Origin: an uncultured candidate division Zixibacteria bacterium
GTDB lineage: Bacteria; Zixibacteria; MSB-5A5; UBA10806
DNA length: 31,967 nt
Assembly (NCBI GenBank): GCA_963817915.1
Contig: CAWFQL010000005.1
Span: forward strand, 1-31,967
Direction of reading: 5' to 3'
In this document: positions 29,762 through 30,503 of the stretch, one piece after another
Layout: every line of letters starts with the position of its first letter
How positions within the stretch are numbered: the stretch's first letter is position 1
Program-made: the position numbers and the translations under genes
Notes under the pieces: generated by a model
Told to the model about the DNA's origin: nothing
Database searches by the model: none
What the model saw: only the letters and a program-made list of their open reading frames with translations

Positions 29762-30503
29762 ATGAAAATATTAATTTCCATTTCAAAAATGATAGTTTTG
29801 CTAATATTGATTCTACAAGGTCCTGCCTTTGCCGGGCCAAAGTTGAAATTATCCGAAGTGGAGTTTGATTTTGGCAATGTGCCGCAGATGGCCAAAATTT
29901 CCCATGACTTTTGGCTTTATTCGATCGGGGACGATACTCTTAAAATTCTCAAAGTCAGCCCTGGCTGAGGCTGCACCCAGGCGCCTCTTGATAAAGAGGT
30001 TCTTGCTGTAGGTGACAGCACGAGACTCGAAATTATTTTTAATACCGGCAAATATGTGAACGCCATTTCCAAGTCTCCGGTAATTTTAACAAATGAAGGA
30101 CCACAGAAACAGCATTCTCCAAATAAAGACAAATATCTTTACAAGTCCGGATTCTACATTACCGATAACCATCATGCCGTCAATAATCGATTTCCCTGAT
30201 TCGGGCGAAACAATAGTGAAAGAGTATTATTTTTCCATCACTAACAAATCGAAGCAGCCCCTGCGCCTCACCCTGGTCAGTTCTCCTAAATCTCTGGTTT
30301 CGGTCACTCTTCCAAAAACGATTCCGGCCGGCGACTTTGCGGATGGCATCATCAAGCTTAAGGATGTGGCAATGAATAAGGTTTTTGAGAAATCAGTTAC
30401 CATAGAGCTTAACGACGCCAGCCATACCCGGTTTACCATACCAATTAAGCGCGGCACTGTCCCACCGCCTAAGCCAGCGGCCAAGGGGCAAGGTAGTCAT
30501 TAG
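29762..30503 (+). CDS. Secreted DUF1573-like (Ig-fold) protein, candidate selenoprotein (UGA at 29966..29968); additional frameshift near 30110
   Basis: FDFGNV..HDFWLYSIGDDTLKILKVSPG*GCTQAPLDKEVLAVGDSTRLEIIFNT..ILTNE, then ORF 30093..30503 supplies a second Ig-like domain. Confidence 0.8.
29969..30019 (+). promoter_or_regulatory. Putative bacterial SECIS element
   Basis: CCTCTT-GATA-AAGAGG hairpin (29984..29999), G-first loop with 21 nt between UGA and loop; extendable lower pairing. Confidence 0.7.

Follow-up and report, generated by a model that had tools for sequence, protein, structure and literature searches.

Does the TGA at positions 29966-29968 of this contig end a short gene, or is it read as selenocysteine (Sec, U) inside a longer one, and what would such a protein do among its neighbours? 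The stretch analysed here, referred to as the window, comprises 31,967 nucleotides (nt) from an uncultured candidate division Zixibacteria bacterium (assembly GCA_963817915.1, contig CAWFQL010000005.1, here C5, from base 1), whose genome of 3.33 Mb is distributed over 22 contigs. Close to the end of the window lies a gene of the DUF1573 family, and its internal TGA is very probably a Sec codon and not a stop. The best explanation as a whole is a Sec codon in the gene of an exported DUF1573 protein of approximately 246 amino acids (aa), belonging to an already catalogued selenoprotein family and to a gene module conserved in arsenic-resistance (ars) clusters, with an inferred metalloid role; it is assigned a probability of about 0.88.

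The DUF1573 gene and its in-frame TGA

The open reading frame (ORF) that starts at ATG 29762 closes after 68 codons at the TGA, directly followed by GGC TGC ACC, which together with the TGA corresponds to U-G-C-T. The same frame continues past the TGA as ...QAPLDKEVLAVGDSTRLEIIFNTGKYVNAISKSPVILTNEGPQ, and the gene is composed of the following parts:

29747-29751, plus strand: GGAGG before the DUF1573 start (sequence)
29762..29965, plus strand: 5' part of the DUF1573 selenoprotein gene, with ATG 29762, the signal peptide and the first strands of immunoglobulin-like (Ig-like) domain 1 (alignment to 29 relatives)
approximately 29762-29833, plus strand: predicted signal peptide MKILISISKMIVLLILILQGPAFA (inferred from sequence)
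29966..29968, plus strand: in-frame TGA, very probably Sec, at the first position of the U-G-C-T motif (alignment with homologues, Sec machinery in the genome)
29969..30106, plus strand: rest of Ig-like domain 1 in frame 1, GCTQAPLDKEV...ILTNEGPQ (Pfam match, alignment)
30104..30111, plus strand: frameshift site CAGAAACA, frame 1 to frame 2, with one base extra relative to intact orthologues (alignment)
30108..30503, plus strand: Ig-like domain 2 in frame 2, NSILQIK...FEKSVTIELNDASHTRFTIPIKR...GQGSH, ending at TAG 30501-30503 (weak DUF1573 match, alignment, two-domain model of a relative)

With the TGA translated as cysteine (Cys), the 112-aa read-through product matches Pfam DUF1573 (PF07610) with an E-value of 9.3e-15 and 54.9 bits against a gathering cut-off of 26.1, and the same 112 residues also match the HYDIN/VesB-like Ig domain of Pfam. 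The second domain resembles DUF1573 weakly (E 2.3e-4; 21.5 bits, under the threshold of 26.1). In the alignment, the TGA column is the first Cys of the nearly invariant family block P-G-C-G-C-T. Homology runs in frame 1 up to ...NEGPQ (codon 30104-30106) and in frame 2 from NSILQIK (30108); the two pieces abut on the intact orthologues with zero residues lost, so that the net lesion amounts to one extra base somewhere in 30104-30111. Three orthologues (at loci L151, L166 and L167) are in a single frame at this site. After correction of the frame, the protein is 115 + 131 = 246 aa long. The original prediction, made from the letters alone, is thus borne out for the structure of the gene: it had placed the TGA at the first Cys of the DUF1573 motif with the domain completed in the same frame, an indel near 30110, and a signal-peptide-bearing protein of about 246 aa with two Ig-like domains.

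The architecture is further described by an AlphaFold model of a 57%-identical relative of 250 aa (from locus L025, modelled with a 30-row alignment, A1), which consists of a signal helix and two beta-sandwich domains (mean predicted local distance difference test score, pLDDT, 90.6; predicted template modelling score 0.82). In Foldseek, this model came closest to Ig domains of the ASH/HYDIN type from ciliary proteins and to the uncharacterised structure 2qsv, while a sequence search of solved structures returned only 2qsv, an uncharacterised Porphyromonas gingivalis protein (E 2.7e-4); neither search gave a functional lead. One His is nearly invariant in the DUF1573 family (H47 of the L025 protein). 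It is strongly supported that the product is an exported protein of approximately 246 aa with two DUF1573-family Ig-like domains and a Sec-Gly-Cys where the Cys-form relatives have Cys-Gly-Cys.

A C-terminal His directly before the stop, ...(S/G/A/D)H, is common among the two-domain members in alignment A1; for instance, the window protein ends in GQGSH, and relatives end in SSSGH (L025), SAGH (L024), PTSH (L030), ATSH (L037), SSLH (L029) and RADH (L032). As judged from sequence, this conserved residue may be a ligand or a sorting mark.

Alternation of selenocysteine and cysteine, and the selenocysteine machinery

Homologues were found in all 41 related genomes searched, at 115 matched places, of which 50 contain exactly one TGA and 65 are stop-free (hand count of the genome-search table); TAA or TAG was found inside none of the 115 matches in these 41 genomes, a pattern that exceeds chance. 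Among the 31 aligned ORFs, which are those present in loci L021-L042, the site column P-G-[U/C]-G-C-T holds TGA in 22 and Cys in nine, and all 31 are open over 215-340 aa. The Cys forms carry PGCGCT, PGCSCT, TGCDC, NCGCS or PTCGCT at this site. In addition to these ORFs, 14 of 14 operon-linked relatives carry U there. The closest orthologues show the TGA within a single open frame in each case: domain 1 of the L151 protein is 64-75% identical to that of the window, the L167 protein is 60% identical, and L166 is the third. The window's own genome possesses a second, intact Sec paralogue of 305 aa on contig C12 and a Cys relative on C11.

The genome encodes a complete Sec system. Profile searches identified selB (362.5 bits), selA (484.4 bits) and selD (357.4 bits), all over their cut-offs, together with tRNA-Sec (66.5 bits against a gathering score of 47), and selC-selD-selA-selB lie side by side at C6:198041-202492. 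The selD gene (C6:201342-202265, minus strand, locus L009) has one in-frame TGA itself and is the selenoprotein form of SelD.

A SECIS-like hairpin downstream of the UGA

A hairpin resembling a selenocysteine insertion sequence (SECIS) element lies downstream of the UGA in the minimum-free-energy (MFE) fold:

29984..29999, plus strand: SECIS-like hairpin core CCUCUU-GAUA-AAGAGG, its loop beginning 21 nt past the UGA (MFE fold)

The extended MFE structure spans approximately 29970-30019. The 60-nt segment that starts from the UGA folds with -25 kcal/mol (z -2.82), and three of 200 shuffled sequences fold as well as this. SECIS elements as a rule have a G early in the apical loop, and the loop of the window's hairpin is GAUA. 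Sec forms of the family have a hairpin 15-17 nt past the UGA that is mostly absent from the Cys forms: over the region +9..+50, the mean MFE is -13.8 kcal/mol in 22 Sec forms versus -6.5 kcal/mol in nine Cys forms (Mann-Whitney p = 1e-5, a value that overstates the support because the sequences are kin and not independent). Similarly, the Sec copies fold better than their tandem Cys paralogues in each of the five genomes that contain both. Across 11 family-level orthologues, the helix is paired in 95.5% of its cells, and sliding the partner columns as a control lowers this value to 28-57%.

There is strong support for a mechanism in which SelB carrying Sec-tRNA(Sec) is directed to the UGA by the hairpin that starts approximately 15 nt downstream. 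The decoding of UGA as Sec and the resulting UxC motif, as originally predicted, are supported by this hairpin together with the TGA/Cys alternation and the four sel genes, both of which had been proposed as checks and both of which were found.

Relation to known DUF1573 selenoproteins

The family itself is not new. A DUF1573 domain-containing protein (PF07610) with the motif 'UGC' is listed in the prokaryotic selenoprotein tables of two reviews (PMC9312934; PMC13188914), where it is credited to Zhang and Gladyshev (2007). That study (PMC1976440) describes the families OS_HP1-3 from Olavius symbionts, and the name DUF1573 occurs 0 times in its text. The equivalence of OS_HP2 and DUF1573 rests on the tables of the reviews and on the name of the NCBIfam model NF041425, 'OS_HP2 family (seleno)protein'. 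The U-G-C at 29966-29974 equals the motif as listed in those tables. The window protein shares with the catalogued selenoprotein the Pfam domain, the U-G-C motif with U in place of the first Cys of C-G-C, the alternation of Sec and Cys forms, and a hairpin past the UGA; it differs in being a two-domain protein of approximately 250 aa from Zixibacteria-type genomes, whereas the original members come from deltaproteobacterial Olavius symbionts. The score of the window protein with NF041425 (53.1 bits, E 3e-14) is under the 100-bit cut-off of that model, so it belongs to another branch. The gene is therefore an unannotated member of a sister branch, rich in Zixibacteria, of a selenoprotein family that is already catalogued.

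In public protein sets, the Sec forms of this branch appear as split or truncated entries. For instance, the L167 orthologue is present there only as a 165-aa post-TGA fragment, and no entry named as a selenoprotein occurs among the public protein matches of the branch. Selenoproteome counts of these uncultured bacteria are accordingly too low. Entries for the Cys forms bear the names 'DUF1573 domain-containing protein' or 'hypothetical' and come mostly from metagenome-assembled genomes of Candidatus Zixiibacteriota. The pattern PGCGCTxAP[LIV] matches Cys codons only, and its 277 relatives, uninformative on the Sec/Cys ratio, were used as controls. The literature passages on the family contain no function or gene context for DUF1573 selenoproteins; the new point is this gene context, which was not found in the catalogues read.

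The conserved module that ends in the DUF1573 gene

The DUF1573 gene is preceded in the window by three genes on the same strand:

27056..27814, plus strand: P0002, first gene of the module, a secreted protein of 252 aa comprising two thioredoxin-like domains and, at the C-terminus, the disordered tail GGCCPP...ACPP (fold model, Foldseek, alignment)
27793..29045, plus strand: MacB/FtsX-type ATP-binding cassette (ABC) permease with the periplasmic motif ...IEVMGCCSAISDG... and a frameshift at 28893-28899 (Pfam, NCBIfam, alignment)
29049..29715, plus strand: ABC ATPase of the LolD/MacB type, with a frameshift at approximately 29262-29273 (Pfam, NCBIfam, alignment)

The permease is composed of an FtsX C-terminal domain (PF02687, E 4.8e-15) and a MacB periplasmic core domain (PF12704, E 2e-10), and the ATPase matches PF00005; for neither protein was an equivalog-level match found in NCBIfam, all scores being far under the cut-offs. 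The fold model of P0002 (pLDDT 85) is nearest, by Foldseek, to the Pyrococcus furiosus disulfide oxidoreductase, the bb' domains of PDI and the N-terminal domain of AhpF. Its conserved cysteines are a CC pair in the disordered tail and a CxxxC within a helix, with no CxxC at the canonical position; all 23 relatives compared retain C235, C236 and C247. P0002 represents an unnamed family with a secreted tandem-thioredoxin fold, an invariant tail GGCCP...C.P and a conserved CxxxC, for which the ESM Atlas returned only unnamed clusters.

Of the 201 genomes sampled from the class, 46 encode P0002 homologues. For comparison of gene order, 29 module loci were fetched, 26 of them from the top of the P0002 match list and three (L145-L147) chosen in the knowledge of a DUF1573 match on the contig. 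Permease and ATPase follow P0002 collinearly in all 29, and the periplasmic motif IE(I/V)MGCC(S/D)(A/E)ISD is present in each of the 24 permease orthologue ORFs retrieved. A DUF1573 gene follows the ATPase in 14 of the 25 loci with at least 1 kb past it (11 of 22 without the preselected L145-L147), and at the TGA site these module-linked genes carry U in 14 cases and Cys in 0. Three of them (L151, L166 and L167) share the two-domain type of the window protein and carry the motif NPGUGCT(Q/K)APLEK, while the other 11 are of a three-domain, membrane-anchored type with K(G/Q)(S/T)UGCTAAVL. There is strong support for the DUF1573 gene being the last gene of a conserved module, in which it is preceded by the genes of the CC-tailed tandem-thioredoxin protein, the CC-bearing MacB-type permease and the ATPase. 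The module resembles the type VII ABC transporters MacB, LolCDE and FtsEX in its FtsX and MacB core domains and its LolD/MacB-type ATPase, and differs from them in having no HlyD-type adaptor, in its invariant periplasmic Cys-Cys and in its location in ars operons.

Other DUF1573 arrays of the same genomes, observed at L043, L044 and L048 (genomes G039, G030 and G040) as tandem arrays of one to four genes with Sec and Cys paralogues mixed, are convergent to HlyD-ABC-MacB-MacB-GWxTD-GWxTD clusters, which constitute a second, ars-free link of the family to MacB-type transporters.

Arsenic-resistance genes around the module

Directly upstream of the module and on the same strand, the window encodes the following ars genes:

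25134-25595, plus strand: ArsR/SmtB regulator (NCBIfam NF033788, 91 bits against a cut-off of 55)
25555-26616, plus strand: ACR3 arsenite efflux permease (TIGR00832, 457.9 bits against a cut-off of 282.8)
26623-27045, plus strand: thioredoxin-type ArsC (TIGR02691, 118.8 bits, under the cut-off of 174.3; Pfam LMWPc, E 2.5e-16)

These three correspond to the canonical ars operon (ArsR-ACR3-ArsC, with ArsM in some). Ars-type motifs (ACR3, LMWP-ArsC and the ArsR metal site) were found at 25 of the 29 module loci versus 0 of 10 and 0 of 80 other DUF1573 loci. In the window and eight further loci checked with NCBIfam, ACR3 (over the cut-off in the window, L166 and L173), ArsR/SmtB, ArsC and, in L145, ArsM were identified, and the ars genes of the relatives are interleaved with those of the module. 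The location of the module inside ArsR-controlled arsenic-resistance clusters is thus strongly supported. Literature searches, at the level of listings, returned no description of such a module and no ars operon in which a DUF1573-family selenoprotein, a tandem-thioredoxin protein with a CC tail or an ABC transporter of the MacB type is included.

At L151 (G116:C15, 4645-7098), the orthologue is followed by a 192-aa protein with SPCCGGSDCCQP, a 231-aa membrane protein and HgcA, the last of these 1.5 kb beyond the orthologue (NF040863, 448 bits against a cut-off of 275). In this genome, the module touches mercury-methylation genes.

Proposed role of the Sec-Gly-Cys protein

The role proposed for the protein is that of a ligand. 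The Sec-Gly-Cys of the DUF1573 domain, the CC tail of P0002 and the periplasmic CC of the permease would constitute a chain of vicinal soft ligands, in which the selenolate-thiolate pair would bind or hand over a thiophilic metalloid or metal, most likely arsenite, in the cell envelope. The type VII ABC motor would then spend ATP to expel or transfer the bound species, and Sec, fully ionised at physiological pH, would serve as the stronger ligand. Put tentatively, the genes may represent an undescribed, ArsR-controlled envelope module of Zixibacteria type that captures periplasmic arsenite, Hg(II) or thioarsenate and expels it or passes it on, with the DUF1573 Sec-Gly-Cys as its soft-ligand end. 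If true, arsenic resistance would have an accessory arm that depends on selenium, and DUF1573 selenoproteins, for which no role has been proposed so far, would be placed in a functional context for the first time; the link to ars genes and a Cys-rich MacB-type transporter gives a concrete hypothesis, that of an envelope arsenite or mercury ligand. The DUF1573 protein of the module is always a Sec form, whereas Cys paralogues are common elsewhere in the same genomes, which makes it a natural case for the question of why selenium is used over sulfur.

The nearest described parallel is the SAO system (Haft and Gwadz, bioRxiv 10.1101/2022.07.06.499078; J Bacteriol 2023), which comprises selenoproteins in an ABC transporter with CC/CU motifs and a proposed function in metal handling. 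Both systems combine an ABC transporter and envelope proteins bearing vicinal Cys/Sec motifs with a metal or metalloid gene context, and both suggest Sec as a soft-metal ligand. They differ in that SaoP is described there as a MetI-like importer permease with Sec at the gate, whereas the permease of the module is of the MacB/FtsX type with CC and not Sec; furthermore, the Sec protein here is an Ig-like DUF1573 protein and not a substrate-binding protein. The Sao models (SaoP, SaoB/SaoX/SaoL) found no match among the window's proteins in an NCBIfam scan. Identity with the SAO system is rejected on account of the different class of permease.

The main rival to the ligand role holds that Sec-Gly-Cys is a redox centre, forming a selenenylsulfide and acting as an envelope thiol/selenol oxidoreductase together with P0002. 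According to passages of the two reviews (PMC9312934; PMC13188914), redox enzymes make up the majority of the known bacterial selenoproteins, and P0002 contains two thioredoxin-like domains. That protein, however, has no canonical CxxC, its cysteines being the CC of the tail and the CxxxC of the helix; no known redox relatives of the Ig-like DUF1573 fold occur among the Foldseek matches, and the module is tied to ars genes. An exclusively redox function is unlikely. Thioredoxin-type ArsC itself works by a thiol cascade, and the redox and metal roles are not mutually exclusive.

Alternative explanations for the codon and the state of this copy

It is highly improbable that translation ends at the TGA, be it a normal stop or a recent nonsense mutation, and that the homology beyond it is the remnant of a dead gene. 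Such a reading would agree with the additional frameshift in the gene, with gene callers, which would end the ORF at 29968, and with the post-TGA fragment that represents the L167 orthologue in public sets; it is contradicted by TGA in 22 of 31 aligned and all 14 operon-linked homologues from many genera with long open frames on both sides, by the freedom of the 115 matches from TAA and TAG, and by a hairpin specific to the Sec forms. Reassignment of TGA to Trp or Gly in the genetic code of this organism has nothing in its favour beyond the open frame and is practically negligible: TGA ends ordinary genes in this genome and its relatives, including several DUF1573 homologues, the aligned residue is Cys and not Trp or Gly, and the Sec system is complete, by which recoding is refuted.

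Several observations weigh against the Sec reading or the parts built on it. No single consensus hairpin was obtained over the 22 Sec forms, for which RNAalifold gave four invariant pairs and no covariation; the register of the stem and its partner codons vary between clades, and therefore no common structure emerges over all 22. Even in the best-conserved group, compensatory change was seen in only one of eight pairs. The three-domain operon type folds no better than shuffled sequences (mean z -0.35, n = 14), and one Cys paralogue (L025:729) retains a short hairpin. The contigs of one sequencing run (5% of words) cover the window only at 29047-29197, 29482-29513 and 31082-31151, so that the TGA at 29966-29968 and all frameshift sites fall outside the covered intervals; a base-call error at the TGA is nevertheless made very unlikely by the conserved TGA in relatives. 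As regards family membership, the NF041425 score is below the cut-off of that model. The DUF1573 gene is not an obligatory part of the module, since 11 of the 25 assessable loci have none after the ATPase, and three of the 29 loci had been preselected for DUF1573, without which the count falls to 11 of 22. The proposed metal-binding role is drawn only from gene neighbourhood and Cys/Sec motifs. Lastly, the DUF1573 gene of the window and its two upstream neighbours each have a 1-nt frameshift, and this copy may be dead.

The permease is one base short relative to single-frame orthologues at 28893-28899 (GGGCCCC), and the ATPase has one base extra at approximately 29262-29273 (CCGGGTT). It is conceivable, though doubtful, that the Sec codon is ancestral and genuine and this copy is nevertheless a recent pseudogene, the frameshifts being real and the module decaying. 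A 1-nt indel in each of three consecutive genes, all inside 1.2 kb, would fit such decay, as would the first 27 kb of the contig with its long intact ORFs (e.g., 991, 742 and 718 aa with full-length domain matches), the unbroken selA, selB and selD on C6, which indicate that the assembly is not error-ridden overall, and the intact Sec paralogue that the genome retains on C12. A PdxJ-like ORF at 20676-21392 was inspected and found free of frameshifts. Apart from the single indels, however, all three genes are stop-free and well conserved (identity to relatives reaches 83% for the permease), and all three indels lie within short homopolymer runs. An ArgZ-like gene on the other strand at 31343-31618 (region 31343-31967, minus strand) is also cut, covering profile positions 155-213 only. 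Regardless of gene and strand, the lesions thus gather within the final 3 kb of a short contig, which favours a poor consensus, and C5 and the other short contigs have a lower long-ORF cover (0.77 for C5 and 0.72-0.77 for C5 with the other short contigs versus 0.83-0.90 for large contigs). Poor assembly consensus near the contig end is therefore the probable source of the lesions.

The permease at L149 (G008:C11) was likewise observed in two out-of-frame tblastn pieces; either permease frameshifts are not unique to the window, or that assembly contains the same type of error.

Other features of the window

Downstream of the DUF1573 gene lies a candidate lipoprotein gene:

30556..31242, plus strand: lipoprotein candidate with the lipobox VFAMAC and three repeats GMNPPHGQPNHRCDI(S/A)VG.PL(N/D)SPPG rich in His and Cys (sequence)

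Its GTG start at 30556 is preceded by GGAGG at a distance of 7 nt. The protein has no Pfam or NCBIfam match and only unnamed, mostly Bacteroidota clusters in the ESM Atlas, and no homologue was found beside the module in the loci of nine relatives.

Far upstream of the module, a 496-aa ORF at 12046-13536 (plus strand) has weak Pfam matches to Toxin_10, the insecticidal crystal toxin P42 domain (E 4.3e-9), and to Vps62 (E 2.2e-7).

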